Source of the DNA: Dehalococcoidia bacterium
GTDB lineage: Bacteria > Chloroflexota > Dehalococcoidia > Bin125
Assembly (NCBI GenBank): GCA_965203165.1
Contig: OZ241849.1
Span: forward strand, 2,093,786-2,157,785
Direction: 5' to 3'
Length of the DNA: 64,000 nucleotides
In this document: positions 23,818 through 39,503 of the stretch, in pieces
Layout of the letters: each line of letters opens with the position of its first letter
Position numbering within the stretch: position 1 is the stretch's first letter
Program-made: the position numbers and the translations under genes
Notes under the pieces: generated by a model
The model's database searches: none
Told to the model about the DNA's origin: nothing
What the model saw: the letters and a program-made list of their open reading frames with translations, nothing else

Positions 23818-24931
23818 GGCAAAATTCCTGCTCTGCCTGCGCCCCGCCCCCGCCGCGTCGGAGGCCGAGCAAATGCTGGAAGAAGCGCGCGCCGCCGTAC
23901 TGCTCGACACCGCCGCCTGCGCTCAGGCGGCCGGCTTCGGCAAAATCGAAATCCACACCACCGCGCCTGAGCTGTTCGCGCAGGCCGGAGCTGTCGTGCG
24001 CCGGACGGACCCTCGCGCATCAATCGGCGCGGTGGTCGCAGCCGCCGCCGGCGCAGGCCCGCTCTGCTACGCCGGCGCGGGAATGCCGGCGATGACCACC
24101 AACGACTGGCGCAGCCTGCGCGAGCGGATCGAGGCCGGCCAGTCGCTCGCCAACAACATCCACTCCTGCGATCTGCTCGCCCTCGCCGACCCCGCGCCGC
24201 TCGCCGCGCTGGCCGGCGAAACAAGCGACAACGCCTTCGCCCGCCGCCTGCGCGACGACCTGGGGCTGGAAATCGCGCAGCTGGAGCGCTCCGCGGCGAC
24301 CCTGCTCGACCTCGACACGCCGACCGATCTCGCCCTGCTCGACCTGGCCCAGGAAAACGGCGTGCTCGAGCTCGGCCCGCGCCTCTCCGAGGCGCTGCAA
24401 CGCTGGACCGCGCGCCTCGCGCCCTGCCGCGAGCGACTCGCCGCGGCGCTCGACGCGCTCACCGAGCGCGAGCGGCAGGTCATGGCAATCGGCCGCGTCA
24501 GCGCCGCGATCTGGTCCGCGCTCGACCGCGACACCGCAGCGCGAATCCGGGTGATCTCCGAAGAGCGCGGCCTGCGCAGTCGCGCCGCTACGGCGGCACC
24601 CCCTCGCTCGCTGCTCGGATTGCACGGCGAGGCCGTAGGCGCAGCCGCGCTGATCGCCGGCCTGGCCGAACTCGCCGACGCAGTGATCTTCGACGCCCGC
24701 CCGCTGCTCGCCCACCTCGGCTGGGGCCGATCGCGCGCCGATCGCTTCGCCGCCGACCTGGGCGAAGCAGCCGCGATCGCAGAGCCGCCCCTGCGCGAAC
24801 TCGTCGAGGCCGTCGCCGCCGCTCCGATCCCGATCGCGCTGGGCGGCCACTCGCTCGTCTCGGGCGGCTTGCTGGCCGGCATCGACATCGCCTGGACGCG
24901 CCGCGAACAGCGCGATCTGTGCAAGCGATAA
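23810..24931 (+). CDS. hypothetical protein (possible MobA/CofC-like nucleotidyltransferase fold: LDLDTPTDL motif)
   Basis: High GC3 coding signal; 373 aa. The D-x-D-T-P-x-D-L motif resembles the C-terminal signature of MobA/CofC-type NTP transferases. No other motif recognised. Confidence 0.5.
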   Translation: MTEAKFLLCLRPAPAASEAEQMLEEARAAVLLDTAACAQAAGFGKIEIHTTAPELFAQAGAVVRRTDPRASIGAVVAAAAGAGPLCYAGAGMPAMTTNDWRSLRERIEAGQSLANNIHSCDLLALADPAPLAALAGETSDNAFARRLRDDLGLEIAQLERSAATLLDLDTPTDLALLDLAQENGVLELGPRLSEALQRWTARLAPCRERLAAALDALTERERQVMAIGRVSAAIWSALDRDTAARIRVISEERGLRSRAATAAPPRSLLGLHGEAVGAAALIAGLAELADAVIFDARPLLAHLGWGRSRADRFAADLGEAAAIAEPPLRELVEAVAAAPIPIALGGHSLVSGGLLAGIDIAWTRREQRDLCKR

Positions 24932-25065: not shown

Positions 25066-26337
25066 ATGACCCTGACCCTCTCTGCTCGCGCGATCGGCGA
25101 CGCCGACCCCGAAATCGCCGACGCAATCGAGCGTGAAGCCCGCCGACAGCACGACGGCCTCGAACTGATCGCCTCCGAAAACTACCCCAGCGAGCCCGTG
25201 CTCGCCGCCATGGGCTCGATCCTCACCAACAAGTACGCCGAGGGCTACCCCGGCCGCCGCTACTACGGCGGCTGCGAGTTCGTCGACGTCGTCGAAACCC
25301 TGGCAATCGACCGCGCCAAGTCTCTCTTCGGCGCGCAGCACGCCAACGTCCAGCCACACTCCGGCTCCCAGGCCAACATCGCCGCCTACTACGCCCTGCT
25401 CGAACCGGGCGACACCGCCATGGGCCTCGAGCTCAACCACGGCGGGCACCTCTCGCACGGACTCTCCGTCAACATTTCCGGCCGCTGGTTCCAGTTCGTC
25501 TCCTACGGCGTGGACCGCGAGACCGAGCGAATCGACTACGACGCAATGGCCGCGGCCGCGCGCGAGCACCGCCCGAAAGTGATCGTGGTCGGCGCGACCG
25601 CCTACCCCCGCCACTACGACTTCCCCCGCGCCGCCGAAATCGCCGAGGACGTCGGCGCAACCCTGATGGTCGACATGGCCCACTTCGCCGGCCTCGTGGC
25701 GGGCGGCGTCCACCCTTCTCCAGTGCCCTACGCCCCGGTCGTCACCACCACGACGCACAAGACGCTGCGCGGCCCCCGCTCCGCGCTGATCCTGACCAAC
25801 GAAGAGCTGGCGCGCGAGATCGACCGCGCCGTCTTCCCGGGCACCTCCGGCGGCCCCCACATGCACACCATCGCGGCCAAAGCCGTCGCCCTGCGCGAGG
25901 CCGCGGCGCCCGAGTTCCAGGCCTATTCCGCCCAGATCGTCGCCAACGCCAAAGCCCTTGCCGAAGGCCTCCAGCTGGAGGGCCTGCGGCTCGTCTCCGG
26001 CGGCACCGACAACCACCTCGTGCTGGTCGACGTGGGCGTCAAAGGTCTGACCGGCAAAGCCGCCGAAGCCGCGCTCGACGCCGCCGGCATCACCGCCAAC
26101 AAGAACACGATCCCTTACGACGAGCAGCGCCCGACGGTGACCAGCGGCGTGCGAATCGGCACCCCGGCGCTCACCACGCGAGGCATGCGCGAGCCGGAGA
26201 TGGCCGCGGTCGCGCGGCTGATTGGCCGCGTGCTCGACGCGATCGACGACGAATCCGTGCGTGCGGCAGTGCGCGGCGATGTGCGGGAGCTGGCCGCGGC
26301 CTTCCCCATCCCGGGAATCGCCGCGGCGGACGCATAA
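25066..26337 (+). CDS. glyA: serine hydroxymethyltransferase
   Basis: [24 protein letters not shown], and the PLP-lysine motif [12 protein letters not shown]. Confidence 0.97.
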
Positions 26338-26374
26338 ACGAACCCAAACGAGCAGAGGGCAAGCAGGAGGCGGC

Positions 26375-26668
26375 ATGGCGCGCGAATACGAAATCATGGT
26401 GGTGCTGCACCCCGATGTGGCGGGCGAGCTGGTCGACCAGCGAATCGCCCAGCTGCGCGATCTGCTCAGCGAGCACGGCAACTCCGTGTCCGAGATAATC
26501 GATTGGGGCCGCCGCCGCCTGGCCTACCCCATCGAGCAGGCCTTCGAGGGCCACTACCTCATCGCCCACTACTCCTCCGCAACCGGTGCCGGACAGATCG
26601 CCCTCGAGCGCGCGCTCGCAATCGACGATCAGGTGCTGCGCCACCTCATCGTGCGCCGCGACGATTAG
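26375..26668 (+). CDS. rpsF: 30S ribosomal protein S6
   Basis: MAREYEIMVVLHPDV.. with RBS AGGAGG. 97 aa. Confidence 0.9.
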   Translation: MAREYEIMVVLHPDVAGELVDQRIAQLRDLLSEHGNSVSEIIDWGRRRLAYPIEQAFEGHYLIAHYSSATGAGQIALERALAIDDQVLRHLIVRRDD

Positions 26669-26712
26669 CTAGGATCGCCTCAATGTACGCGCGAGGGAGC
26701 TGGAGCTGAGCC

Positions 26713-27162
26713 GTGGCGAGCCTGAACAAAGTCCAAATCATCGGCAATCTGGGCGGGGATCCGGAGATGCGGTTCACCGCCAACGGGCGCTCCGTCGCCA
26801 ACTTCAATGTCGCCTGTAGCCGTCGCTACACGACGCGCGATGGGGAGCAGCGCGACGACACCGAGTGGGTGCGCGTGGTCTGCTGGGAGCGGCTCGCCGA
26901 GTTGGCTGGCCAATATCTGAGCAAGGGGCGTCAGGTCTACGTTGAAGGTCGCCTACAGACGCGCGAGTGGGAAGACCGCGACGGCAACCGACGCTGGACG
27001 ACCGAAGTGGTCGCCAACGACATTCAGTTTCTCAGCGGGCGCGGCGGCGGGGGAGACGACGATTGGGGCGGCGGCGGTCGCAGTGGTGGGGGCGGCGGAG
27101 GCTATGAGCGCGGCGGCCCGCCGCCGGCCGGCATGGACGCCGACGACCTGCCCTTCGAGTAA
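26713..27162 (+). CDS. ssb: single-stranded DNA-binding protein
   Basis: [14 protein letters not shown]...G..VA.F..A, Gly-rich linker, acidic C-terminal tip DDLPFE (from window numbering this starts at a GTG). Confidence 0.95.
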
Positions 27163-27218
27163 GACGCAACGGCCGACTGCGCAGTCGGCTCTACAGCAGT
27201 GAATCCGAGGAGGACGCG

Positions 27219-28244
27219 ATGACGACAGAACCAGAAGCACCGGCGCCCGCTGCCGAAACGGCTGAAACGGCTGTCGAGCCGCAGCCGACTGAGCAGCCTC
27301 CGGCCGCTGCGGTTCCCGCCGTTGAGCCGGAGCCGGCCGCGCCGGTGCCAGCGCCGCAGCGGGTGACGCCCGGACCCACGACATCCGCCGGGGAGCGTGG
27401 ACCGCAAGTAGTTGAGCGTGCGCGGCGGCGCACGCGGCGGCGGCGCGCGCCGGTCTTTACGCCCCGCGAAGTCGAGAACATCGACTACAAGGACGTCGAC
27501 AAGCTGAAGAAGCTGATCTCCGATCGGGGCAAGATCGAGCCGCGCCGCAAGACGGGGCTCACGGCGAAAGATCAGAAGAAGCTGGCGCGGGAGATCAAGC
27601 GGGCGCGGTACATGGCGCTGCTGCCGTACACAGCGGATCACATGCGGCAGACGAGCCGCTACCGAATTGCGACGCGGGCGGCGGAGCGCGCCGCGCGCTA
27701 CGCAGAGGCGGAACCGCGCCCGGTTGAGGCTGCGCCTGCCGTTGCTGCACCGCCTGCGGACGCGCCCACCGCGGAAGCTGCCGCCGCTGCGCCGCCCGCC
27801 GCCGCTCCCGCGCCTGATGCCGCGCCCGAACCGGCGGCGGCTCCGGCCGAGCCTGTTGCGGAAGCCGCGCCGGCGGTGCCGGAGGCTGCCCCCGCAGCGG
27901 AAGCCGTACCTGCCGTTGCAGCGCCGCCTGCCGCTGCGCCCGAACCGGCGGCGGCTCCGGCCGAGCCTGTTGCGGAAGCCGCGCCGGCGGTGCCGGAGGC
28001 TGCCCCCGCAGCGGAAGCCGTACCTGCCGTTGCAGCGCCGCCTGCCGCTGCGCCCGAACCGGCGGCGGCTCCGGCCGAGCCTGTTGCGGAAGCCGCGCCG
28101 GCGGTGCCGGAGGCTGCCCCCGCAGCGGAAGCCGTACCTGCCGTTGCAGCACCGCCTGCCGCTGCGCCCGAGCTGGCGGCGGCTCCGGCCGAGCCTGTTG
28201 CGGAAGCCGCGCCGGCTGCGCAGCCGGACTCCGATCCGGCATGA
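27219..28244 (+). CDS. rpsR: 30S ribosomal protein S18 with long Pro/Ala-rich N- and C-terminal extensions (341 aa)
   Basis: Canonical S18 core [58 protein letters not shown] at aa 80-137. A single ORF with RBS GAGGAGG. The C-terminal 200 aa are encoded by 114-bp tandem repeats. ATGA overlap with hom. Confidence 0.75.
27822..28240 (+). repeat. tandem repeat, period 114 bp, about 3.7 near-identical copies, inside the rpsR coding region
   Basis: The unit GCGCCCGAACCGGCGGCGGCTCCGGCCGAGCCTGTTGCGGAAGCCGCGCCGGCGGTGCCGGAGGCTGCCCCCGCAGCGGAAGCCGTACCTGCCGTTGCAGCGCCGCCTGCCGCT recurs at 27822, 27936, 28050 and 28164 (partial). Confidence 0.9.
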
Positions 28245-29578
28245 GCGGGCGCGCCGATGTTGGCGTGGGCCTGCTCGGCCTCGGCGTCGTGGGCGGGCGC
28301 GTGTTCGACGAGCTGCGCCGCAACGGGGCGTCGTTCGCGCAGCGCGCTGGACGCAACCTCTCCGTCCGCGCCGTTGCAGTCCGCGATGTCGAGCGGCGGC
28401 GAGAGCAAATCGACGGCTGCGCGGCGCTGATCGACGATCCGCTCGCTGTCTGTACGCGCGGCGATGTGGATCTGGTGGTTGAGCTGATGGGCGGGGAACA
28501 ACCCGCAGCGGAGTGCATCGCGGCGGCGATCGGGGCCGGCAAATCGGTGGTCACTGCGAACAAGGAAGTGATGGCCAAGCACGGGCCGCGGCTGCTCGAT
28601 CTGGCCCGCGAGCGAGGCGTCGAGTTGCGCTACGAGGCGAGCGTGGGCGGCGGCATCCCGATCATTGGCGTGCTGCAACGCGAGTTGCGCGCCAATGAAG
28701 TGCGCTGCGTGCGCGCAATCATCAACGGCACGACCAACTACATGATCACGGAGATGTCGCAGCACGGCGCCTCGTATGAAGATGCCTTGGCGCAGGCGCA
28801 GGCGCAGGGCTACGCGGAGGCGGATCCGACCAACGATGTGGAAGGAATCGACGCGGCCTACAAGCTGGCGATCCTGGCGTCGCTGGCGTTTCACGCGCGG
28901 ATCGCGCCGGAGCAGGTGCACCGCGAGGGCATCCGCGCGCTCAGCGCGCGCGACTTCCGGCATGCCGCGAATTTGGGCTACACGATTCGGATGCTGGCGA
29001 CAGCGCGGCGCACGCCGCGCGGCATCGACCTGCGCGTCCACCCCACGCTGATTCCGACGCACGATCCGATGGCGCGGGTCGATGGCGTGCTGAACGCAGT
29101 GGCGGTCGAAGGCGATTTGCTGGGCACGGTGGTGCTCGAGGGCGAGGGCGCAGGGGCGGGGGCGACGGCCAGCGCGGTGCTCGCGGATGTGCTGGATGTC
29201 ATCGGCGCGGGTTCGGCAGGAGCGCCGCGCGCCCCGGCAGCGCAGGCGGGAACGGCGGCGCTGCTGCCGCTCGCGGAAGTCTGTCTGCCGACCTACCTCC
29301 GCCTGGCGGTGCCGGATCGCGCGGGGGTGCTCGCCGAATTGGGCCAGGCCTTTGCCGAGCAGGGGGTGAGCATCGCCTCTGTGCTGCAAACGCCGCGCCC
29401 GGACGCAGCAGAGAGCGAGCCGCCGGCGGCGGAACTGATCATCACGACCCACGCCGGACCGGACGACGCGATGGATCGGGTGCTGGCCTCGCTGGCAGAC
29501 TCCGACAGCGTGCTTGAGCTGGGCGTGCGGCTGCGGATCGAGGACGAGCGCGACGCAGGAATGGCGGGGGCGTGGTGA
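28241..29578 (+). CDS. hom: homoserine dehydrogenase
   Basis: [15 protein letters not shown]-binding motif, catalytic core, C-terminal ACT domain. Confidence 0.95.
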
Positions 29579-30585
29579 CCACGGCGCAGCGCCCCGAGGG
29601 GGTGGACGGCTGGGTTTCGGTCTTCGAGGAAGACTTGGCAGGGCAGCGCGCGCGCCTTACCGAGCTGCTGCAGTCGGCGGAGCGCGACCGACGCGAGCTG
29701 GCGGCCACGCAGGAGCGGCTGCGGGAGACCGAAGCGCTGGCCCTGCGCGCAGTTTCGCAGGCCGCCGCGATGTCGACGCGGCTGGACGAAATCCAGACGC
29801 TGCGCGAGCGCTTGGGCCGCGCCCAGTCGGCGATCGACGAGCAGGGCGAGCGGCTCGATATGTCGCTGCGGCAGATCCGGCATGAGGTTGATGTGGAGCG
29901 GGAGGCGCTGGCGCAGACGGTGCGCCGCCTCGACGCGGCGGAACACGCGACAGGGGATGCGGTGGAACGGCTCTCGGCGGTGGATGAGGCGCTCCAGCGG
30001 CTGGGCGATACGGACGACGACCTTTCGCAGCGAATCGCACAGGCGGAGTCGCATGTGGAGGCGGGCGCGGCGCGGATTGCGGCCAACGCGGAGGCGATTC
30101 GGCGGGCCCACGCCGATCAGCGCGCGGCCGATGCCCGCGAGGAAATCCACGATCGGCGGCTGACGGAGCTGACCGATCGCTTCAATGCGGCGCAGCAGTC
30201 GCTGTTGCGCGTCCGCGAGACAGCCGATCAATGGGAAGATTTGACCGCGGCGGTGGAGACAATGCGAGCGCGGTCGGACGACGCGCGCCGGATGCTCGAC
30301 GAGGCGACGGCCAGCGCGGCCAGCGTGCGCCGCGCGTTTGAGACGATCGAGGAGCGGATCGGCGATGTAGAGCGCGGGGCGGAGCAGTTGCGCAGCCGAG
30401 ACAGCCACCGCGAGCGGGCGTTGACCTCGCTGAACGACGAGCTGGAGCGCTTGCAGGGCGAGGCGAGCCGCGAACAGCAGCGCTTCGTGGCGCTGCAGGA
30501 GCAGATCCGGCGGCGCCAGATTAATGACCTGGAACAGGAGATCCGGGAACTCAAAGCCTATGTGCGGGTGCAGGCCGATGACTGA
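29572..30585 (+). CDS. hypothetical coiled-coil protein (337 aa, very R/E/A/L/Q-rich, no TM)
   Basis: Strong GC3 periodicity. The GTG start overlaps the hom stop, and its own stop overlaps the thrC ATG (GATGACTGA). Confidence 0.65.
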   Translation: MVTTAQRPEGVDGWVSVFEEDLAGQRARLTELLQSAERDRRELAATQERLRETEALALRAVSQAAAMSTRLDEIQTLRERLGRAQSAIDEQGERLDMSLRQIRHEVDVEREALAQTVRRLDAAEHATGDAVERLSAVDEALQRLGDTDDDLSQRIAQAESHVEAGAARIAANAEAIRRAHADQRAADAREEIHDRRLTELTDRFNAAQQSLLRVRETADQWEDLTAAVETMRARSDDARRMLDEATASAASVRRAFETIEERIGDVERGAEQLRSRDSHRERALTSLNDELERLQGEASREQQRFVALQEQIRRRQINDLEQEIRELKAYVRVQADD

Positions 30586-31645
30586 TCCGCGCGGTGCCGG
30601 CGGTGTGCTTGAGCGGTACGCCGAATGGCTGCCGATTACGCAGGCGACGCCGCGGATCAGCCTGGGCGAGGGCGGCACGCCGCTGGTGCGCGCCGAAGCG
30701 CTCGAACGGCGCACGGGCGCGGCGGAAGTCCAACTCAAGCTCGAACTGTGCAATCCCACCGCGTCGTTCAAGGACCGCGGAATGGTGGTGGCCGTGGCGA
30801 AGGCGATCGAGCAGGGAGCCACGGCGGTGCTCTGCGCGTCAACCGGCAACACCAGCGCCTCCGCCGCGGCCTACGCCGCGCACTGCGGATTGCGCGCGTT
30901 CGTGCTTGTGCCGGGCGCGAAAGTCGCCCAGGGCAAACTGGCGCAGGCGATCGTCCATGGTGCGCGGGTGCTGGCTGTGGAGGGCAGCTTTGACGACGCG
31001 CTGCGGCTGGCGCGCAACGCGACCGAGGATCTGCCCGTGGCGCTGGTCAACTCCGTCAATCCCTACCGCATCGCGGGGCAGAAGACGGCCGCGATGGAGA
31101 TTGTCGACGCGCTCGGCGACGCGCCGGATTTGCACTGCCTGCCTGTCGGCAACGCGGGCAACATCACGGCCTACTGGCAGGGCTACCGGGAGTATGCGCG
31201 CGCCGAGCGCGTCAGCCGCCTGCCGCGTATCCTGGGCGTGCAGGCAGCCGGGGCCGCCCCGCTCGTGTCGGGCAAGGTCGTCGAGCGGCCCGACACCGTA
31301 GCGACGGCGATTCGAATCGGCAACCCAGCCTCATGGGAGGGAGCGATCGCCGCGCGCGACGAGTCGGGCGGGGCGATCGTGGCGGTCGACGACGCCCAAA
31401 TTCTGGATGCCTGGCAAATGCTGGCGAGCGAAGCGGGGATTTTCTGCGAGCCCGCCTCGGCCGCTGCGGTGGCCGGGCTGCTCGCGGCCGATCACAGCGG
31501 GGTGGCCGGGCGGCGGGTCGTCTGCACCATCACCGGGCACGGCTTGAAAGACGCGGACCTGGTCGGGCAGCTGCAGAGCGACATCGTGCCCCTCCCTGCC
31601 GATTACCGCGCGGTGGCGGCGGCGATTGCAGAGCGGCTCTCGTGA
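30578..31645 (+). CDS. thrC: threonine synthase
   Basis: PLP-lysine motif NPTASFKDRG; GNTSAS...; typical short-form ThrC. Confidence 0.95.
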   Translation: MTDPRGAGGVLERYAEWLPITQATPRISLGEGGTPLVRAEALERRTGAAEVQLKLELCNPTASFKDRGMVVAVAKAIEQGATAVLCASTGNTSASAAAYAAHCGLRAFVLVPGAKVAQGKLAQAIVHGARVLAVEGSFDDALRLARNATEDLPVALVNSVNPYRIAGQKTAAMEIVDALGDAPDLHCLPVGNAGNITAYWQGYREYARAERVSRLPRILGVQAAGAAPLVSGKVVERPDTVATAIRIGNPASWEGAIAARDESGGAIVAVDDAQILDAWQMLASEAGIFCEPASAAAVAGLLAADHSGVAGRRVVCTITGHGLKDADLVGQLQSDIVPLPADYRAVAAAIAERLS

Positions 31646-32214
31646 GCGGGCAGGTTGATCTGGCCCGAGCGGAGGCTGCCGTGCGCGAGCTGCTGCTTTC
31701 GCTGGGCGAGGACCCGGAGCGGGAGGGCCTGCGCGAGACGCCGCGCCGCGTGGCGGCGGCCTTTGCGGAGCTGCTGGGCGGGCGTGAGATCGACGCGGAA
31801 GCGCTGCTCCAGGTGGGCTTTAACGAAGGCCACGACGAGATGGTGATTCTGCGTGACATTCCCTTCTTCTCGATTTGCGAACACCACCTGATCCCGTTCC
31901 GCGGCGCGGCGCATGTGGCGTATGTCCCGCGCGGGCGCGTGGTGGGCATTTCCAAGCTGGCCCGGCTGGTCGACGCCGTGGCCCGCCGCCCCCAACTGCA
32001 GGAGCGGCTCACCGCGCAGATCGCCGACATCATGATGGATGCGCTGGAGCCCGACGGCGCGGCGGTAGCAGTGGAGGCGGAGCACCTCTGCATGACGATG
32101 CGCGGGATTAAGAAACCGGGTTCGCGGATGGTCACCTCGGCGATGCGGGGTACTTTTCAAAGCCAGAATGACACGCGCGCGGAGTTCCTCGCGCTGGTGC
32201 GGGCGCGCGAATGA
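31642..32214 (+). CDS. folE: GTP cyclohydrolase I
   Basis: ICEHHLIPF, ISKLARLV, HLCMTMRG. The GTG start overlaps the thrC stop. Confidence 0.95.
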   Translation: MSGQVDLARAEAAVRELLLSLGEDPEREGLRETPRRVAAAFAELLGGREIDAEALLQVGFNEGHDEMVILRDIPFFSICEHHLIPFRGAAHVAYVPRGRVVGISKLARLVDAVARRPQLQERLTAQIADIMMDALEPDGAAVAVEAEHLCMTMRGIKKPGSRMVTSAMRGTFQSQNDTRAEFLALVRARE

Positions 32215-33206
32215 CGGGCGCGCTGACAAGCACTGCCGGCTGGGACGAGTTTGCGCCGCGCTGGCGCGCGCTGGTCGCGGAGACGCGCCCGGCCGCGGCG
32301 CCGTTCGTCGCGCCCGAGTTCGCCCGCGCCTGGTGGTCCGTATTCGGCGGCGCGTCGGAACTCGAGCTGGAGATCGTCCCGATCGAGCAGGGCGGCGCGC
32401 TGATCGGCGTGGCGCCGCTGGCCCGCAACGGCGTTTCGGCCGCCTGGATCGGCAACCACGAAGTAGCCGACTACATGGGCGCAGTGGCCGCACAGGGGCG
32501 CGAGGAGGCCGTAGCGGAGGCATTGTTGGAGCATCTGGAGCAGAGCGGACTGCGCTCGCTCGATCTGCGTGGCCTGGATGCCGGCGCGCCGCTGGCCAGC
32601 CTGCTCGAAGCGGCGGCGCGGCGGCGCGGCTGGCGAACTTCAAGCGGGCAAGAAGCCGTCTGCCCCGTCGTAGACTTGGAGGGCGGCTGGGAGGCGTATC
32701 TGGATCGCCTTCGCTCGCGCGACCGGCGCGAGGTGCGGCGCAAGCTCCGTCCCCTGCGCCAGCTGGGCTCCGCCGTGCGGTTTGATGTGCTACAGGGCGC
32801 GGACGCCGCGGCCGAACTGCCGCTGCTGCTGGAGATGATGAGCGGCTCGCGGGGCGATAAGGCTGCTTTCCTCACCGAGCCGATGGAGCGCTTCTTCCTC
32901 ACGCTGGGCGAAGCGATGGCGGCGCACGGCTGGCTGCGCCTGCACCGCCTGCACATCTCCGACGAGCCCGCCGCGATGGTGCTCTGCTGGGAAACGCAGG
33001 ATGAGTTGCTGCTTTACAACAGCGGCTTCGACGCGCGCTTCCGCGAGCTCAACGCCGGCCTCGCCTCAAAAGTGCTCTGCCTGCGCGAGGCTGCCGAGCG
33101 CGGCGTGCGCTACGTCAACTTCCTGCGCGGCGAAGAGCCCTATAAGTTTGAACTGGGTGGCCGGCCGCGCGCCGTCCAACGACTCCAGATTCAGCGAACC
33201 GACTGA
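32211..33206 (+). CDS. FemAB-like / BioF2-like (CelD-type) GNAT-fold N-acyltransferase
   Basis: About 330 aa with a C-terminal ...YNSGFD...YVNFLRGEEPYKFELGG... pattern typical of the Acetyltransf_6 (FemAB-like) family. Overlaps the folE stop. Confidence 0.6.
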   Translation: MTGALTSTAGWDEFAPRWRALVAETRPAAAPFVAPEFARAWWSVFGGASELELEIVPIEQGGALIGVAPLARNGVSAAWIGNHEVADYMGAVAAQGREEAVAEALLEHLEQSGLRSLDLRGLDAGAPLASLLEAAARRRGWRTSSGQEAVCPVVDLEGGWEAYLDRLRSRDRREVRRKLRPLRQLGSAVRFDVLQGADAAAELPLLLEMMSGSRGDKAAFLTEPMERFFLTLGEAMAAHGWLRLHRLHISDEPAAMVLCWETQDELLLYNSGFDARFRELNAGLASKVLCLREAAERGVRYVNFLRGEEPYKFELGGRPRAVQRLQIQRTD

Positions 33207-33208
33207 TC

Positions 33209-34522
33209 ATGCCGCATCACCTCCGACGCCTCGCCGTAGTTTCGACGCACACCTCGCCGCTGGCGCGTCCGGGCACGACCAAGGCCGGCGGGATGAATGT
33301 CTACGTGGCCGAGCTGGCCAAGCAGCTGGCGGCGCGCGAGCGAATTGTCGACATCTACACCCGTCGCGACCGCCCGGACCTGCCCGACGTAGTCGAGCTC
33401 GCCCCGGGCGCGCAGGTGGTGCATGTTGATGTCGGCCCGCCGACGGCGCTGTCGCCGATCGAGGTGGCGGCGCACATCGACGCCTTCACCGCCCGAGCCG
33501 ATCAGATTGCGCGCGAACGGGGCTGGTCCTACGAGCTGCTCCATTCGCACTACTGGGTCTCCGGGCTCAGCGGCATCTCCCTGGCGCAGCGCTGGGGCTG
33601 TCCGCACGCGGCGACATTCCACACGCTGGGCGAGATCAAGAATCGCCACTACCGCGGCGCAGGGCCGCCCGAACCGGCGCTGCGCATCGCCGGCGAGCAC
33701 CACGTCGCCTCGTGCGCGGACCTGCTGATTCCGTGGACCGACCACGAGCGCGATTTTCTGGTCGATTTCTACCGCGCGGATGCAGAGCGGATTCGGATTG
33801 TGCCGGGCGGCGTCGATCTTGATCGCTTCCATCCTGGCGATCAGCGAGCAGCTCGCGCCGCGCTGCGCCGCACCATGCCCGATCTGCATGTCGATGATGC
33901 GCCGGCGATTCTGTTTGTCGGGCGACTCGAACCGCTCAAGGGCGCGGACCTGCTGGTCGAGGCGCTGGCGCAACTGGAGACGTCGGCCGGCGCGCCGCAG
34001 CCCCGGCTTTGGATTGTGGGCGGCGACGAGCGCGACGCGACGGAGCGGGCCCGTCTGCGGGCGATCGCCGCCGCGGCGGGCGTGACCGAGCGAGTCTCGA
34101 TGCAAGACGCCGCGCCGCACCACCTGCTGCCCGACCTGCACCGCGCCGCCGATGTCTGCGCGATGCCCTCGGCCTATGAGAGTTTCGGCCTGGCGGCGGT
34201 CGAGGCGATGGCCTGCGGCAGGCCGGTGGTCGCCTCGCGCGTCGGCGGACTGCTGACCACGATCGCCGACGGCCAAACCGGCTATCTGGCGCCCGAGCGC
34301 AGCGCAGCGGCGTTTGCGCAGCGCCTGGCGCGGGTGCTCAACGCGCCCGACGGCGGCGCGGCCATGGGCCGCCGCGCCGCGGCGTCGATGCGCCGCTACG
34401 CCTGGCCCGCAGTAGCGCAGCGCATGCTGGCGCTCTACGAGTCGGTGATCGCGGAGCCGGAGCGTGATCCGTCGCCCTGCGCTGAGGCGGCCGAGACGCT
34501 GCTGGCCAGCGCGGGGCTGTAG
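33209..34522 (+). CDS. GT4 retaining glycosyltransferase of the MshA/BshA type (N-acetylglucosaminyl transferase)
   Basis: N-terminal VVSTHTSPLARPGTTKAGGMNVYV signature of MshA/BshA. C-terminal GT4 E-x7-E region (SAYESFGLAAVEAMACGRPVVAS.VGG). Confidence 0.85.
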   Translation: MPHHLRRLAVVSTHTSPLARPGTTKAGGMNVYVAELAKQLAARERIVDIYTRRDRPDLPDVVELAPGAQVVHVDVGPPTALSPIEVAAHIDAFTARADQIARERGWSYELLHSHYWVSGLSGISLAQRWGCPHAATFHTLGEIKNRHYRGAGPPEPALRIAGEHHVASCADLLIPWTDHERDFLVDFYRADAERIRIVPGGVDLDRFHPGDQRAARAALRRTMPDLHVDDAPAILFVGRLEPLKGADLLVEALAQLETSAGAPQPRLWIVGGDERDATERARLRAIAAAAGVTERVSMQDAAPHHLLPDLHRAADVCAMPSAYESFGLAAVEAMACGRPVVASRVGGLLTTIADGQTGYLAPERSAAAFAQRLARVLNAPDGGAAMGRRAAASMRRYAWPAVAQRMLALYESVIAEPERDPSPCAEAAETLLASAGL

Positions 34523-34537
34523 GCGAGGAGCCTGGGC

Positions 34538-35368
34538 ATGACCGAATCGGGCGAACGGCGCGCGCTGATCGTGATGGCGCACCCCGACGACATCGAATTC
34601 ACCTGCGGCGGCACAGTCGCCTCGCTGGCCGACGACGGCTGGGACGTGACCTTCTGCCTCGTGACCAGCGGAGACAAGGGCAGCAAGGATCCCGATCTCT
34701 CGCCGGCGGATCTGGCGGCGCTGCGCGAAGCCGAGCAGGAAGCCGCCGCTGTCGAACTGGGCGTGCGCCGCTGCATCTTTCTGCGCTGGCCGGACGGGTT
34801 TGTCGAGGACGGGCCGGAACTGCGCGGGGCGCTGGTGCGGGTGGTGCGCGAGGTGCGGCCGGAGCTGCTGATCACCTGGGACGGCTACCGCGGCTTCAAT
34901 CACCGCGACCACCGCACGGTGGGTATCGCGGCGCTCGATGCGGTGTTTCCGCTTTCTCGCAATCCCAACACCTACGCGGAGCAGGTCAGCGCCGGACTGG
35001 AGCCGCACCGGGTCAACACCGTACTGCTGGCTGGCGCGCGCGAGCCGGATTACTGGGTGGATGTGAGCGCCCAATTGGAGCGGCGCATCGACGCCCTCTT
35101 TCGCCACGCGACGCAGGTGCAGGCGGTGAAACGCGAGGAGATGGCCAAGCGGATGGCTGAGCGCCAGCGGCGCGCGGCGGCCCAAGGCCGAGTGCCGTGG
35201 GCCGAGGCGTTTCGCCGGTTGACGTTCGGGGAAGTCAGCTCGCCGCGCCGCGCCGCGGCGCTGGCGGCGGAGCGCAAAGCCCGCGAGTCGGAGGCTGAGG
35301 CGGCTGCCGAACAGCCCGCCCAGTCAGACGCAAAACCGGGCGCTGCGCAGGCCGTCGCTTCGGCGTAA
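34538..35368 (+). CDS. PIG-L/LmbE-family N-acetylglucosaminyl deacetylase (MshB/BshB-like)
   Basis: LIVMAHPDDIEF...D......LVTSGDKG...HRDH, the zinc-binding motifs of LmbE-like deacetylases. Confidence 0.85.
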   Translation: MTESGERRALIVMAHPDDIEFTCGGTVASLADDGWDVTFCLVTSGDKGSKDPDLSPADLAALREAEQEAAAVELGVRRCIFLRWPDGFVEDGPELRGALVRVVREVRPELLITWDGYRGFNHRDHRTVGIAALDAVFPLSRNPNTYAEQVSAGLEPHRVNTVLLAGAREPDYWVDVSAQLERRIDALFRHATQVQAVKREEMAKRMAERQRRAAAQGRVPWAEAFRRLTFGEVSSPRRAAALAAERKARESEAEAAAEQPAQSDAKPGAAQAVASA

Positions 35369-35395
35369 TCTGAGCCGCGAAGGGAGCGCGCGCCG

Positions 35396-36307
35396 ATGGC
35401 CGAGAGCGCACTCTTTCTGCTTTGGGCGAGCTTTGCCGCTGCGATCGTCGCGGCTGCGGCTGCGATCGCCTACGCCGTCCAGCCGCGCCTCGCGGCCGTC
35501 TTCGCTGGCCGCCCGGTCGTCGCCACCGAGCCGGGCGTGCCGATCCGATCCGGGCCGATTGCGCGCTCCGCGACGCTCGGCGGAATCGCCACGCTGAGCA
35601 CCTGGGCCGCCGCATTGATCGGGCTGGTGGGGCTTGTGCTGCGCGGCCTGGCGCTGAACCACGCGCCCTACAGCAACCTCTTTGAGTTCTCGATGGCCTT
35701 CGGGATCGCGATTGTGCTGTGCTATGCGATCTTCGAGTTCCGCTCCGGCACCCGGCTGGCGGGGGCGTTTGTGCTGCCGGTCGCCTGCGGGCTCTACGCC
35801 AGCGCGCTGGCCTTCCCCAGTGAGGGGCAGGAAGTGCTGGTGCCGGCGCTGCAAAGCCCCACGCTGCTGACGATCCATGTCGCGCTGATGATCCTCTCCT
35901 ACGCGGTGCTGGCGGTGGCCTTCGGCGGTGCGGCGATGCACATTACGCAGGCGATGCGGCATACGGACCGCGAAGGGCGCTTCGCGTTTCTGCCCTCGCC
36001 GCAGCGCTGCGACGAGCTGACTTACCGCGCCGTCCTGGTCGGTTTCCCGCTGCTCGCGGCGGGAATTGCACTGGGCGCATTCTGGGCGAACGACGCCTGG
36101 GGCCGCTATTGGGGCTGGGACCCGAAGGAGACGGCGGCGCTGGTGACTTGGCTGATCTTCGCCGTCTACATCCATGCCCGCGGGCTGCGCGGGCTGCGCG
36201 GCGCGCGCAGCGCCTGGATCGTGGTGTTGGGCTTCGCGGCCGTGCTCTTCACCTACCTCGTCGTGAACCTCGTGATCTCGGGACTGCATTCCTACGCCGG
36301 CGTCTGA
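35396..36307 (+). CDS. ccsA: cytochrome c-type biogenesis protein CcsA (ResC-like haem handling)
   Basis: WWD-domain motif WGRYWGWDPKE and conserved His residues. Polytopic membrane protein. Confidence 0.85.
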   Translation: MAESALFLLWASFAAAIVAAAAAIAYAVQPRLAAVFAGRPVVATEPGVPIRSGPIARSATLGGIATLSTWAAALIGLVGLVLRGLALNHAPYSNLFEFSMAFGIAIVLCYAIFEFRSGTRLAGAFVLPVACGLYASALAFPSEGQEVLVPALQSPTLLTIHVALMILSYAVLAVAFGGAAMHITQAMRHTDREGRFAFLPSPQRCDELTYRAVLVGFPLLAAGIALGAFWANDAWGRYWGWDPKETAALVTWLIFAVYIHARGLRGLRGARSAWIVVLGFAAVLFTYLVVNLVISGLHSYAGV

Positions 36308-36356
36308 TACCCAGGTAACAGAGGACGCGCGAAAATCCACAGTTCTGGCACGGCGG

Positions 36357-36386
36357 TTGTCAGTGGCGCGTAGACGCGGCTATGAT
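36357..36386 (+). promoter_or_regulatory. sigma-70-type promoter candidate for the str operon (TTGTCA-N18-TATGAT)
   Basis: -35 TTGTCA at 36357-36362 and -10 TATGAT at 36381-36386, about 70 nt upstream of rpsL. A GC hairpin lies in the leader (GTGCCGCC-CCC-GGCGGCGCAC). Confidence 0.45.
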
Positions 36387-36456
36387 GAGGTTTCCGCGCC
36401 CTACCTGGGCGTCCTCCTGTGCCGCCCCCGGCGGCGCACACTGAGTAGGCGACACA

Positions 36457-36894
<438 letters not shown>

Positions 36895-36952
36895 CGGGTG
36901 GCCTTCATCCTGCCGCCCCGCGCGGGCGGCGTTCGCCGAAAGCCCACGTCAC

Positions 36953-37423
36953 ATGCCGCGCCGCCGACGCCCCGAACGCCACCAAATTCGCCCCGACGCC
37001 CGCTACGACAGCGTGCCGGTGCAGATGGTGATCAACCGGATCATGCTGAGCGGCAAAAAGAGCGTGGCGGAGAAAATCATGTACCAGGCGCTTGACGTGA
37101 TCCGCGACCGCATGCGCCAGGATCCGCTTGAGGTCTTCCTACAGGCCCTGGACAACATCACGCCGGAGATGGAAGTCCGCCCGCGCCGCGTGGGCGGCGC
37201 GACCTACCAGGTGCCGGTCGAGATTCGCCACGATCGCCGCAACGCGCTGGGCATCCGCTGGTTGGTCACGGCCGCGCGCAGCCGCAAGGGACGCCCGGCC
37301 TACCTCTCGCTGGCGGATGAACTGCTGGACGCCTACAACCACACGGGCGCCGCCGTGCGCCGCCGCGAAGACACCCACCGCATGGCCGAAGCGAACCGCG
37401 CCTTCGCCCACTACCGCTGGTAA
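36953..37423 (+). CDS. rpsG: 30S ribosomal protein S7
   Basis: MPRRR...D.RY.S..V...IN.IM..GKKS.AEKI.Y.AL. Confidence 0.95.
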
Positions 37424-37445
37424 ACCCCGCCAAGGACGACCCAAA

Positions 37446-39503
37446 ATGGCCTCCGAACAGCCCATTCAGTATGTCCGCAACATCGGCGTGATCGCGCATA
37501 TTGACGCGGGCAAAACGACCGTGACCGAGCGCATCCTCTACTTCACCGGCCGCACCTACAAGATCGGCGAGGTGCACGACGGCACAGCGGTGATGGACTA
37601 CATGGACCAGGAGCGCGAGCGCGGCATCACGATCACCGCCGCGGCGACCAGCGCGGAGTGGAACGATCACCTGATCAACATCATCGACACGCCGGGGCAC
37701 GTCGATTTCACCGTGGAAGTCGAGCGCAGCCTGCGCGTGCTGGACGGCGGCGTGGTCGTGTTCGACGCCGTGGCCGGCGTCGAGCCGCAGTCCGAGACCG
37801 TCTGGCGGCAGGCCGACCGCTACGCCGTGCCCCGAATCTGTTTCGTCAACAAAATGGACCGCATCGGCGCGGACTACTGGCGGACGATGGAGATGATCCG
37901 CGATCGTTTGGGCGCGGTACCCGTGCCGGTGCAGATTCCGATTGGCAGCGAAGACCAATTTGAGGGCGTGATCGACCTGATTCGGATGCGCGCTTGGTTC
38001 TTCAGCGAGGATCGCGACGATCCGCCGCGCGAGGGCGAAATCCCTGAGCGCTGCGTCTCCGACGCCGGGCGCTGGCGCGAGACGATGATCGAGCGGATCG
38101 CGGAGAACGACGAGCAGGTGATGATCTCCTACCTCGAGGGCCACGAGCTGACCGAGGACGAGATTCGCAAGGCGGTGCGGCGCGGCGCGGTGGCCAACCT
38201 CTTCACCCCGGTGCTCTGCGGCAGCGCGCTGAAGAACGTCGGCGTGCAGCGCCTGCTCGATGCGATCGTCGATTACCTGCCCGCGCCCGACGAGGTGCCG
38301 CCGGTGCGCGGCATCAACGCGGACGGCGTGGAGGTCGAGCGGCGCGCCGATTCCGGCGAGCCGCTCACCGCGCTGGCGTTCAAGATTGTCACCGATCCCT
38401 TCGTGGGGCGGATCGCCTATGTGCGGGTCTACTCGGGCACGCTCGAGGCCGGCGCGAGCGTCTACAACTCGACGCGCCAACGGGTCGAGCGGGCCGGCCG
38501 CCTGCTGCGCATGCACGCCGACTCGCGGGAAGACATCAAGCGGGTGACCGCGGGCGACATCGCGGCATTCGTAGGGCCCAAAGAAACGTTTACCGGCGAC
38601 ACGCTCTGCTCGCGCGACGCGCCGCTGCTGCTCGACGAAATCCGCTTCCCCGAACCGGTCGTCTCCGTCGCCATCGAGGCGAAAAGCAAGGACGACCAGG
38701 ATCGCCTGGGCACGGCGCTGCGCAAGCTGGTCGAAGAAGACCCCACATTCCGCGTCGAATTCAACGACGAGACCGGCCAGACGGTGATTTCGGGGATGGG
38801 CGAGTTGCACCTCGAGGTGATCGCGGATCGGCTGCGGCGCGAATTCAACGTGGCCTGCACGGTGGGGCGCCCGCAGGTGGCCTACCGCGAGACGATTCAA
38901 CGCTCGTCCGAGGCGGAAGGGCGCTTTGTGCGGCAGACGGGCGGGCGCGGGCAGTACGGACACGTCGTGCTGCAGATCGAGCCGAACGAGGCCGGCGCGG
39001 GCTTCGAGTTTGAGGACAAGAGCGTAGGCGGCGTGGTGCCGCAGCACTTTGTCCCGTCCGTCAAGCGCGGCGTTGAGCAGGCGATGCGCAACGGCATTGT
39101 GGGCGGCTTCCCCGTGGTTGATGTGAAGGTTGCGCTGGTCGACGGCAGCTACCACCAGGTCGACTCCAACGAGTTGGCGTTCGCTACGGCGGGGGGCATG
39201 GCCTTCCGCGAGGCGATGCGCCGAGCCGAGCCGGTCCAGCTGGAGCCGATGATGCGCGCCGAGCTGGCCACGCCTGACGAGTTTTTCGGCGATGTGCTGG
39301 GCGATGTGAGCGGGCGCCGCGGGCATGTGACGGGCACGGAAATGCGCGGCACCCTGCAGCTGATTCGCGCCCACATTCCGCTTGCGGAATTGTTCGGTTA
39401 CACCACCACGCTGCGTTCGATGACGCAGGGGCGGGCGACGGCGAGCATTGAGTTCGATCACTACGCGGTGATTCCGCAAGGAGTGTTGGCCGCGGCGCGA
39501 TAG
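37446..39503 (+). CDS. fusA: elongation factor G
   Basis: [27 protein letters not shown]. The true ATG at 37446 lies inside the longer track ORF 37128..39503. Confidence 0.97.

Follow-up and report, generated by a model that had tools for sequence, protein, structure and literature searches.

A conserved gene trio in Dehalococcoidia that may encode the core of a pathway to an N-aminoacyl-glucosamine conjugate, possibly a thiol

Organization of the locus

The window, that is, the whole 64-kb stretch of Dehalococcoidia DNA that was analyzed, contains a trio of genes for a tandem-GNAT protein (AT6), a glycosyltransferase, and a deacetylase, embedded in the following context:

28241-29578, + strand: hom (Pfam Homoserine_dh plus ACT); context, same co-directional string
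29572-30585, + strand: coiled-coil ORF with weak SMC-like matches only; context, same co-directional string
30524-31645, + strand: thrC (Pfam PALP); context, same co-directional string
31642-32214, + strand: folE, GTP cyclohydrolase I (PF01227, E 3e-74; NCBIfam FolE); context gene
32211-33206, + strand: AT6 (Acetyltransf_6, PF13480), tandem-GNAT protein, 331 aa
33209-34522, + strand: MshA-like GT4 glycosyltransferase, 437 aa
34538-35368, + strand: PIG-L/LmbE-family zinc deacetylase, 276 aa
35396-36307, + strand: ccsB, cytochrome c biogenesis (TIGR03144, 228 bits, above cutoff); context gene

The first-pass annotation of this DNA had placed the trio at these positions, behind hom, the coiled-coil ORF, thrC, and folE, and both the coordinates and the order are correct. 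The junctions were read directly. The ATG of AT6 (32211-32213) and the TGA stop of folE (32212-32214) share the tetranucleotide ATGA, which agrees with the overlap described previously. The AT6 stop (33204-33206) is followed after 2 nt by the GT4 ATG at 33209, and the GT4 stop (34520-34522) is separated from the deacetylase ATG at 34538 by 15 nt containing GAGGAG; the gaps given earlier as 3 and 16 nt are thus corrected. The start of folE is most likely the GTG at 31642, overlapping the thrC stop. In all three trio genes GC3 is ~0.83-0.84 and GC2 ~0.52-0.54, a contrast typical of real genes in a genome of 70% GC. The coiled-coil ORF is retained in 13 close relatives. The sole sigma-70-like promoter match within 26000-37500 lies at 36357-36386, after ccsB and before rpsL. 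The ccsB gene itself, absent from the first-pass annotation, starts close behind the deacetylase gene, at a spacing of 27 nt (ATG 35396).

Glycosyltransferase and deacetylase

The domains predicted for the glycosyltransferase, Glycos_transf_1 (E 3e-37) and Glyco_trans_4 (E 2e-23), were both recovered by the Pfam scan. Its best NCBIfam match is MshA (TIGR03449), aligned at full length with 366.1 bits, below the equivalog cutoff of 462.5; a homologue from a related locus, L032, scores 338.7 bits with the same model. The BshA model (TIGR03999) covers the C-terminal half only, at 84.9 bits against a cutoff of 273.7. Thus, of the original assignment to the MshA/BshA type, the MshA part holds, at 366 bits and below the equivalog level, and the BshA part, at 85 bits, does not. 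In the comparison with proteins of known structure, MshA of C. glutamicum (3C48/3C4Q) leads with 268 bits, followed by sucrose-phosphate synthase (6KIH) with 211 bits.

The GGMNVYV motif quoted in the first-pass annotation is present and is accompanied by HSHYW. The equivalents of MshA residues Y110, H133, T134, and R154 are invariant in 69 of 69 GT4 family members. The equivalent of N25 is N in 43 members and S in 26, and the position of K78 is occupied by K in 43 members, by P in 12, and by L in 11; proline is the residue of the window's clade (P83 in the window). These are the residues which we take to be the inositol-phosphate (1L-Ins-1-P) ligands of MshA, a list reportedly drawn up by Vetting and co-workers in 2008. 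The UDP ligands R231 and E324 of MshA (PMC2628429) are also kept, as judged by pairwise alignment. The protein is predicted to transfer GlcNAc from its UDP donor to a phosphorylated acceptor that resembles inositol phosphate.

The deacetylase matches Pfam PIG-L (PF02585) with 113.2 bits (E 1.5e-32), well over the gathering score of 28.2, as expected, and carries the anticipated zinc and catalytic motifs, HPDD at residue 15 and HRDH (HxxH) at residue 122. All three relevant NCBIfam models score below their cutoffs: BshB1 (TIGR04001), the best match, at 96.4 bits (cutoff 182.5), BshB (TIGR04000) at 71 bits (cutoff 195), and MshB (TIGR03445) at 57 bits (cutoff 224). Among PDB entries, LnmX (5BMO) and archaeal diacetylchitobiose deacetylases match best, ahead of BshB and MshB. 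The final ~45 residues form an Ala/Glu-rich tail that is missing in homologues of 231-235 aa. The enzyme is predicted to strip the N-acetyl group from a GlcNAc conjugate.

A pair of this kind could also act on a membrane lipid. An acceptor with a phosphatidylinositol- or glycerolipid-type head group would yield an aminoacylated glucosaminyl lipid: the first half of the route would resemble PIG-A/PIG-L, and an aminoacylation of the MprF kind would come next and tune surface charge. We regard this as improbable. For the glycosyltransferase, soluble MshA is a full-length match and sucrose-phosphate synthase the next one, whereas the N-acetylglucosaminyl-phosphatidylglycerol synthase model reaches only 73 bits in the C-terminal half; a hydrophobic segment is found in none of the three trio proteins; and the accessory genes of related loci are of soluble thiol-pathway types.

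The tandem-GNAT protein

The only Pfam match of AT6 is PF13480 (E 4e-27); PF02388 (FemAB) and DUF2156 gave no match in the Pfam scan, and some homologues have a weak precomputed match to PF04339 (FemAB_like). A profile search of the PDB yielded no Fem protein and no detectable sequence similarity to FemX. The nearest structures to a high-confidence model of AT6, however, are the aminoacyl-tRNA-dependent transferases Fem, MprF, and Sbb17, which share the tandem-GNAT fold. The first-pass proposal that this ORF belongs to an acyl- or aminoacyl-transfer family is therefore supported by both the domain assignment and the model. The pair Y311-K312 is invariant in 71 AT6 sequences; within the C-terminal GNAT domain it falls in the helix formed by residues 310-314. 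It may correspond to Phe304-Lys305 of FemX, where the catalytic lysine also follows an aromatic residue. From the modeled fold and the gene context, AT6 is predicted to be an aminoacyl-tRNA-dependent transferase acylating the free amine of a glucosamine intermediate.

Known tandem-GNAT tRNA-dependent transferases include FemX, FemA, and MurM, the streptothricin-type enzymes Orf11, Sba18, and Sbb17, and the synthase domain of MprF. Of these, Orf11 attaches glycine from Gly-tRNA to the amine of an intermediate that is an amino sugar (PMC12945691). AT6 differs from the FemX/Orf11/MprF group in its Pfam family (PF13480 rather than PF02388), its partner genes, and its predicted acceptor, GlcN-X. 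Moreover, the setting of AT6 resembles that of a core gene of primary metabolism, whereas the Fem, MprF, and Orf11 enzymes serve cell-wall, lipid, or antibiotic biosynthesis. A few AT6 homologues are solitary, for instance in Tepidiforma.

Conservation of the trio and its genomic context

Adjacency was counted in the 69 species-level loci whose downstream flank reaches 3.5 kb or more. The GT4 gene directly follows AT6 in 63 of the 69, a PIG-L gene lies within 7 kb in 54, and 53 loci show both features. The hosts among the related loci include Dehalococcoidia, Desulfobacterales/Syntrophobacterales, and one Bacillota MAG, and further copies, one of them fragmented, occur on contigs of Syntrophobacterales and other deltaproteobacteria. 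Thus, the trio is a conserved linkage and not a chance neighbourhood, and the check for a conserved gene neighbourhood suggested in the first-pass annotation gives a positive result across phyla.

These counts bear directly on another explanation, an ordinary bshA/bshB or mshA/mshB pair with its ligase encoded elsewhere and AT6 as an unrelated neighbour, e.g., a CelD/BcsL-type polysaccharide modifier. JGI does give AT6 homologues the name 'CelD/BcsL family acetyltransferase involved in cellulose biosynthesis'. However, cellulose or exopolysaccharide genes were found neither in the window nor in the annotated neighbourhoods of related loci, and the glycosyltransferase and deacetylase fall under every Msh and Bsh equivalog cutoff. 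Since AT6 is conserved directly upstream of the glycosyltransferase and deacetylase genes across phyla, it is no accidental neighbour of a canonical pair, and we consider this explanation, contradicted by the conservation data, the least probable of all.

The upstream link has a different distribution. The gene folE precedes AT6 in 40 of 80 genome loci, down to ~31% AT6 identity, and in none of those titled Desulfobacterales, deltaproteobacteria, or Bacillota; ccsB follows the deacetylase gene in 18 of the 80. Glucosaminyl and GlcNAc pterins occur in nature, and both the persistence of folE and the overlap of its stop with the AT6 start would fit a pterin glycoside, an (aminoacyl-)glucosaminyl neopterin or biopterin like solfapterin or the Chlorobium N-acetylglucosaminyl pterins. 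Such a product is very unlikely, given that the trio occurs without folE in every locus bearing one of the three titles above, that hom-thrC-folE belongs to a conserved housekeeping block, and that the putative MshA-type acceptor residues Y110, H133, T134, and R154 are kept. The trio itself sits in the core, housekeeping part of the chromosome. Hence the string of genes proposed in the first-pass annotation as one unit with hom-thrC-folE does exist, but the link is confined to Dehalococcoidia/Chloroflexota, and the simplest account of it is lineage synteny across a housekeeping region rather than a functional coupling. Probably, folE lies outside the trio pathway.

Accessory genes and the identity of the amino acid

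Loci elsewhere in the family contain additional genes. In 25 loci a tandem GNAT is encoded for which MshD (TIGR03448) is the top NCBIfam model; the matches are full length at 93-106 bits and fall below the equivalog cutoff of 163 bits. A glyoxalase-II-like MBL hydrolase is found in 18 loci, and HAD phosphatase and DinB genes are present at related loci as well. Among deltaproteobacteria, L081 and six of the 80 genome loci, seven in all, have a gene for a ~417-aa protein directly upstream of AT6 and in operon with it. The protein combines an S51-like domain with PF23493, the anticodon-binding domain of CysRS, which matches above cutoff at 36.9 bits. Genuine CysRS aligns solely to the C-terminal part of this protein. 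The same gene stands upstream of AT6 in three of three extra members picked solely for long contigs, and in L089 this S51-CysS_C gene, AT6, GT4, and PIG-L are four overlapping genes. The S51-CysS_C protein appears to keep the Ser-His-Glu triad. Its CysRS anticodon-binding domain, encoded next to AT6, suggests tRNA(Cys) as a partner in deltaproteobacteria. Together, the MshD-like, glyoxalase-II-like, HAD, DinB, and CysRS-anticodon genes lend support to the route originally proposed from the window, namely GlcNAc transfer, deacetylation, and N-aminoacylation, with a low-molecular-weight thiol as one potential product.

All five types of accessory genes are absent from the window and its closest relatives (L001-L008), and therefore the argument for a thiol draws on distant loci; for the CysRS-domain protein the absence extends to every Dehalococcoidia locus, the window included. 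This bears on an explanation that keeps the chemistry and changes the amino acid, so that the product would not be a thiol and could be a compatible solute or the precursor of another cofactor. The amino acid specificity of AT6 is not readable from its sequence, and known Fem-type enzymes mostly take Gly, Ala, Ser, Leu, or Lys. We nevertheless hold this alternative to be unlikely, because the related loci carry accessory genes of the thiol-pathway type (MshD-like, glyoxalase-II-like, DinB) and the sole tRNA-related partner found bears a CysRS anticodon-binding domain.

Somewhat less likely still, AT6 could be an acyl-CoA-dependent N-acyltransferase that re-acylates the freed amine or acts in an MshD-like manner once a different enzyme has attached the amino acid. 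That enzyme would be S51-CysS_C in the deltaproteobacteria, whereas the Dehalococcoidia would need a ligase encoded away from the trio. Pfam and database names do put AT6 among GNAT 'acetyltransferases', tandem GNATs such as MshD use acetyl-CoA, and S51-CysS_C, with its apparent triad, could itself handle Cys-tRNA.

Proposed pathway and comparison with known thiol systems

Based on homology and gene context, the trio can be described as the core of a widespread, undescribed cytoplasmic pathway to an N-aminoacyl-glucosamine conjugate that follows the mycothiol/bacillithiol logic and may well yield a thiol; we assign this reading a probability of about 0.5. No published description of such a pathway was found in the literature. 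Three steps are envisaged. (i) With UDP-GlcNAc as donor, the MshA-like GT4 would add GlcNAc to an acceptor resembling 1L-myo-inositol-1-phosphate, either a polyol or a sugar in phosphorylated form. (ii) The PIG-L enzyme would then take off the acetyl group and bare the 2-amino group. (iii) AT6, as a FemX/MprF/Sbb17-type transferase, would place an aminoacyl group from aminoacyl-tRNA, most likely Cys-tRNA(Cys), on this amine, and so would do the work of MshC and BshC, which are ATP-dependent ligases. The MshD-like tandem GNAT clustered with the trio in many other lineages would afterwards N-acetylate the amino acid. In the source genome's clade the MshD-like gene is not adjacent to the trio, and thus the final compound may, like bacillithiol, retain its amine unmodified, or a gene elsewhere may supply the acetylation. 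An aminoacyl-GlcN conjugate built by a tRNA-dependent AT6 is the firmer part of the scheme and rather probable; that the amino acid is cysteine, making the product a thiol, has slightly less than an even chance. Among the possible products a low-molecular-weight thiol is the most likely.

Known ligases were also sought. No MshC-, BshC-, or MshD-like gene is present among the larger profile-scanned or annotated ORFs of the 64-kb window, in line with the earlier statement that an MshC/BshC-type ligase is lacking here. A tblastn search with CysRS gave no match in the window, and no MshC-like paralogue of the CysRS catalytic domain was seen in the window or in any of the 90 loci retrieved.

The mycothiol pathway of Actinomycetota proceeds through MshA, MshA2, MshB, MshC, and MshD (PMC2628429). 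The trio shares with it the order of chemical steps, a glycosyltransferase nearest to MshA (full-length, 366 bits, with the putative acceptor residues Y110, H133, T134, and R154 and the UDP ligands kept) and followed by a PIG-L gene, and, in 25 related loci, a tandem GNAT with MshD as best match; the HAD phosphatase of some loci could fill the MshA2 role. In contrast, MshC, a CysRS paralogue, was not found in the window or the related loci, and a FemX-fold protein stands in its position. The GT4, deacetylase, and MshD-like proteins all score below curated equivalog cutoffs, and MshB is a more distant match of the deacetylase than BshB, LnmX, and Dac are. The trio is also hosted by Chloroflexota and Desulfobacterota rather than by Actinomycetota, and the MshD-like gene is missing in the window's clade.

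The bacillithiol system (BshA, BshB, BshC) differs in that the glycosyltransferase reaches 85 bits with the BshA model but 366 with MshA, the deacetylase stays at 96 bits where BshB1 requires 182.5, and the third trio enzyme belongs to a fold class different from that of BshC, a family matched by no scanned ORF. The likeness lies in the overall design: GlcNAc transfer by a GT4 enzyme, deacetylation by a PIG-L enzyme, and a putative cysteine-adding enzyme, with no final acetylation, in the three-gene form seen in the window, the deacetylase having BshB1 as its best NCBIfam match.

Gene arrangement in the window

The window has a GC content of 67-72%. From 28.2 to 36.3 kb it carries a continuous plus-strand series consisting of hom, a coiled-coil ORF, thrC, folE, the three genes AT6 (acyltransferase-like), GT4 (glycosyltransferase) and PIG-L (deacetylase), here called the trio, and ccsB. 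Direct reading of the junctions gives the following arrangement.

Trio genes and junctions in the window
32211-33206, plus strand, AT6
33209-34522, plus strand, GT4
34538-35368, plus strand, PIG-L
32211-32214, plus strand, overlap of the folE stop and the AT6 ATG, reading ATGA
33206 (AT6 end) to 33209 (GT4 start), plus strand, 2-nt gap
34522 (GT4 end) to 34538 (PIG-L start), plus strand, 15-nt gap containing GAGGAG
27 nt 3' of the PIG-L end, plus strand, start of ccsB

The first-pass annotation had given the two gaps as 3 and 16 nt, each off by one; the rest of its description of the trio stands. Codon-position GC identifies all three as real genes. No promoter signal (sigma-70 scan) or terminator signal was found inside the gene string, whose co-transcription is putative.

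According to profile scans, the larger ORFs of the window are exclusively housekeeping genes, among them an ABC transporter, pdxS, thrB, aspartokinase, dnaE, rplI, dnaB, moaDE and glyA; rpsF-ssb-rpsR, rpsL-rpsG-fusA-tuf and ribosomal protein operons with secY, map, rpoA and truA; as well as ahcY and a PfkB-family kinase. Among these scanned ORFs no gene related to MshC, BshC (the ligation enzymes for mycothiol and bacillithiol, respectively) or MshD was found, in agreement with the initial remark that an MshC/BshC-type ligase is absent here. ARAGORN found no tRNA gene in the window.

Conservation and distribution of the trio

AT6 has many homologs, nearly all of them from Dehalococcoidia MAGs. 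One query yielded more than 5,600 sequence clusters, and the 240 listed homologs are from MAGs only, with no cultured host among them. When one genome for each GTDB species was screened with two AT6 motifs, at least 571 loci were confirmed. The best 80 of these were taken forward and searched with the proteins of the window; 69 of the 80 have at least 3.5 kb of downstream sequence. In this subset of the best 80, GT4 is located directly 3' of AT6 in 63 of the 69 loci, 54 of the 69 have PIG-L within 7 kb, and both features are combined in 53. The linkage persists down to approximately 31% AT6 identity and extends beyond Chloroflexota to genomes labelled Desulfobacterales, deltaproteobacteria and Bacillota; contigs from Syntrophobacterales and further deltaproteobacteria, examined independently, also carry the trio. 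The conserved neighborhood that the first-pass annotation had proposed to look for in relatives is thus present, also outside Chloroflexota.

The genes upstream of the trio are distributed differently. Among the best 80 of the at least 571 loci, folE is found 5' of AT6 in 40, and in none of those titled Desulfobacterales, deltaproteobacteria or Bacillota. The trio product could be a pterin glycoside linked to folE, a possibility opposed by these non-Chloroflexota loci, where the trio occurs without folE. A functional tie to threonine biosynthesis is rejected because hom and thrC are also absent from the non-Chloroflexota loci. In our reading, the hom-thrC-folE context reflects inherited synteny of a housekeeping region and not a functional link.

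Several loci depart from the common arrangement. A few AT6 homologs, from Tepidiforma, an Anaerolineaceae MAG and Ca. Amarobacter, have no trio partners. The AT6-GT4 pair is kept with no PIG-L within 7 kb in the homologous loci L003 (OZ241913.1), L008, L014, L025 and others, which include a close relative with 74% identical AT6; in L002, an insert of about 2 kb separates GT4 from PIG-L.

Glycosyltransferase and deacetylase

By far the best family match of GT4 is MshA (TIGR03449; full-length alignment, 366 bits, cutoff 462.5), with only 85 bits for BshA. Of the MshA/BshA-type assignment made initially, the MshA side is retained at a sub-cutoff score and the BshA side is not. Among solved structures, GT4 is closest to Corynebacterium glutamicum MshA (CgMshA; 268 bits) and a cyanobacterial sucrose-phosphate synthase (211 bits), so its nearest relatives glycosylate small phosphorylated acceptors. 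Aligning 69 family members with CgMshA shows invariant residues at the positions of Y110, H133, T134 and R154, N or S at that of N25, and, at that of K78, Lys in 43 of the 69 members and Pro in the clade of the window. We take these residues to be the inositol-phosphate ligands of MshA, a list that reportedly goes back to the 2008 MshA structure paper. The UDP ligands of MshA, R231 and E324 (PMC2628429), are kept in GT4 in a pairwise alignment; they are the only ligand residues named in PMC2628429 and PMC2988379.

The GT4 acceptor may instead be a lipid, given the existing MprF-like and PIG-A/PIG-L-like analogies and the membrane protein DUF502 encoded in some related loci; this reading is opposed by the proximity of GT4 to the soluble MshA and sucrose-phosphate synthase and by the lack of a hydrophobic segment in all three trio proteins.

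The third protein is a PIG-L deacetylase (PF02585, 113 bits) with HPDD and HRDH motifs, as predicted from its zinc motifs in the first pass. It scores below both pathway cutoffs (BshB, 96 versus 182.5 bits; MshB, 57 versus 224 bits), and the closest solved structures are LnmX and archaeal diacetylchitobiose deacetylases. The view that a canonical bshAB or mshAB pair is accidentally adjoined by an unrelated AT6 gene is contradicted by the conservation data and, given also the sub-cutoff scores, is rejected. The C-terminal tail of PIG-L (35230-35368), about 45 Ala/Glu-rich residues, is missing in homologs of 231-235 aa.

AT6 and the aminoacyl-tRNA-dependent transferases

AT6 (331 aa) has a single Pfam match, the anticipated Acetyltransf_6 (PF13480, residues 170-312), and matches no NCBIfam model; databases name it a "GNAT family N-acetyltransferase" or "CelD/BcsL cellulose" protein. 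A profile search against PDB sequences returned nothing meaningful (best E 0.09, an aminotransferase), and only the comparison of folds was informative. The AlphaFold2 model, built with 71 homologs (pLDDT 96.3, pTM 0.92), consists of two GNAT-like halves. Its top 21 Foldseek matches in PDB are Weissella FemX, Sbb17/Sba18, the MprF synthase domain, FemA and 2hqy, an unannotated Bacteroides protein; after one unannotated protein, the best CoA-dependent tandem GNAT scores 13.0, and MshD 12.1. Sbb17/Sba18 are aminoacyl-tRNA-dependent peptide synthases with structures determined in the presence of the amino sugar streptothrisamine. The amine of this biosynthetic intermediate is glycylated by Orf11 with Gly-tRNA as donor (reviewed in PMC12945691), which sets a direct precedent for the reaction suggested for AT6.

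The 26 invariant positions of AT6 include Tyr311-Lys312 close to the C-terminus. An aromatic-Lys pair with a catalytic Lys is formed by Phe304-Lys305 in FemX and Phe328-Lys329 in DhpH-C (PMC12945691); Tyr311-Lys312 may plausibly be its equivalent.

Partner and accessory genes in related loci

In deltaproteobacterial loci, the gene just 5' of AT6 encodes a protein of about 417 aa, here termed S51-CysS_C. Its conserved N-terminal domain is Peptidase_S51-like, with motifs AASAAA, PHWNN and LDEH that are consistent with an intact Ser-His-Glu triad. The C-terminus matches the CysRS anticodon-binding domain (PF23493, 36.9 bits, cutoff 23) and also positions 356-464 of NCBIfam cysS. When the genuine CysRS of locus L082 was compared with 90 loci and the window, it matched, apart from itself, only the C-terminal part of S51-CysS_C in seven loci, with no CysRS catalytic-domain paralog in any of the 90 loci or the window. 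The family comprises about 8,000 sequence clusters under the JGI name "peptidase E". Three further members (L087, L088 and L089) were picked for long contigs only; in all three, the gene is directly 5' of AT6 and PIG-L, with GT4 in between in L087 and L089, and in L089 the four genes overlap each other. S51-CysS_C adjoins the AT6/PIG-L cluster in every deltaproteobacterial contig examined. GT4 is missing only in L088, a fragmented copy where AT6 is a 128-aa fragment and the GT4 gene was not called.

Recurrent additional genes were identified by clustering all ORFs of the loci.

Partner and accessory genes in homologous loci
S51-CysS_C: L081 5810-7126; L089 8001-9314; L087 8001-9269; also L023, L047, L051, L058, L061, L077
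MshD-like tandem GNAT, best match MshD, below cutoff: L012 9177-10142, minus strand; L032 9231-10163, minus strand
Glyoxalase-II-like MBL hydrolase, GSH_gloB match: L073 7435-8076, minus strand; L032 10964-11677, minus strand

A tandem GNAT of about 315 aa is encoded on the opposite strand between GT4 and PIG-L in 25 of the best 80 of at least 571 loci; its best NCBIfam match is mycothiol synthase MshD, near full length (93-106 bits, cutoff 163). In 18 of the same 80, an MBL-fold protein flanks PIG-L, mostly just 3' of it and transcribed convergently, with hydroxyacylglutathione hydrolase (glyoxalase II) as best match (NCBIfam GSH_gloB, 96 bits). In L090, this gene directly follows GT4 and PIG-L is not adjacent. 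Some deltaproteobacterial S51-CysS_C loci also contain two GFO/IDH/MocA oxidoreductases, which may modify the sugar or cyclitol acceptor, along with a HAD phosphatase and a member of the DinB family. One or two oxidoreductase genes lie immediately 5' of AT6 in deltaproteobacterial L023 (4169-6899), L087 (9478-12187) and L084 (1-966), one being fused to a ThuA-like domain. In 16 Dehalococcoidia loci (L076, 9141-9986, and 15 others), an inserted DUF502 gene separates GT4 from the MshD-like or PIG-L genes. None of these additional genes, S51-CysS_C included, is found in the window or its closest relatives (L001-L008).

Proposed pathway and relation to known thiols

In the proposed pathway, GT4 would place GlcNAc onto an inositol-phosphate-like acceptor, the HAD phosphatase, where present, might remove the phosphate, and PIG-L would expose the amine. 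AT6 would then aminoacylate the freed amine from aminoacyl-tRNA, as suggested by its fold, its position in place of MshC/BshC and the tRNA(Cys) anticodon-binding domain of its partner. In loci that encode the MshD-like enzyme, this enzyme would acetylate the amino acid. Cysteine is the favored candidate, since the sole tRNA-related partner is CysRS-derived and MshD-like, glyoxalase-II-like and DinB genes co-occur. Genes of these three kinds are companions of thiol cofactors. The putative thiol assignment draws on loci from other lineages, and AT6 may add another amino acid. We give a probability of roughly 40% to the reading that the FemX-fold transferase delivers Cys from Cys-tRNA(Cys), as a third, mechanistically unrelated solution to Cys-GlcN ligation, assisted in deltaproteobacteria by the anticodon-binding-domain partner.

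The proposed system would follow the logic of mycothiol and bacillithiol synthesis, and the bare three-gene core of the window fits a bacillithiol-type three-step scheme. Its enzymes fall outside every curated membership test for those pathways, and the ligation step would belong to a different enzyme class. No description of the cluster was found in the literature on mycothiol, bacillithiol or thiols in Dehalococcoidia, Chloroflexota and Desulfobacterota, or on tRNA-dependent thiol synthesis, nor in the Aravind 2010 paper on aaRS-like ligases; the searched literature likewise held no report of such a thiol in Dehalococcoidia or Desulfobacterota. If correct, the proposed pathway would identify a redox-buffer or detoxification thiol for major uncultured groups, including the subsurface and marine Dehalococcoidia and the sulfate-reducing or syntrophic Desulfobacterota. 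A thiol cofactor of primary metabolism would for the first time be made in a tRNA-dependent way, and the pathway would assign a function to a large PF13480 "CelD/BcsL" subfamily with relatives in at least 571 species genomes.

Other features of the window

The coiled-coil ORF (29572-30585, 337 aa) is wedged between hom and thrC with overlaps of 7 and 62 nt; it has only weak SMC/Rad50-like matches and is kept in 13 close relatives. Two stop-to-stop frames, 23714-24931 (plus strand, 405 aa) and 4110-5189 (minus strand, 359 aa), have coding-like GC3 and no Pfam match at E ≤1e-5. The ribosomal protein S18 gene (27219-28244) has long Ala/Pro-rich extensions, the C-terminal one encoded by a 114-bp tandem repeat (27811-28216; 3.6 copies, 97% matches).
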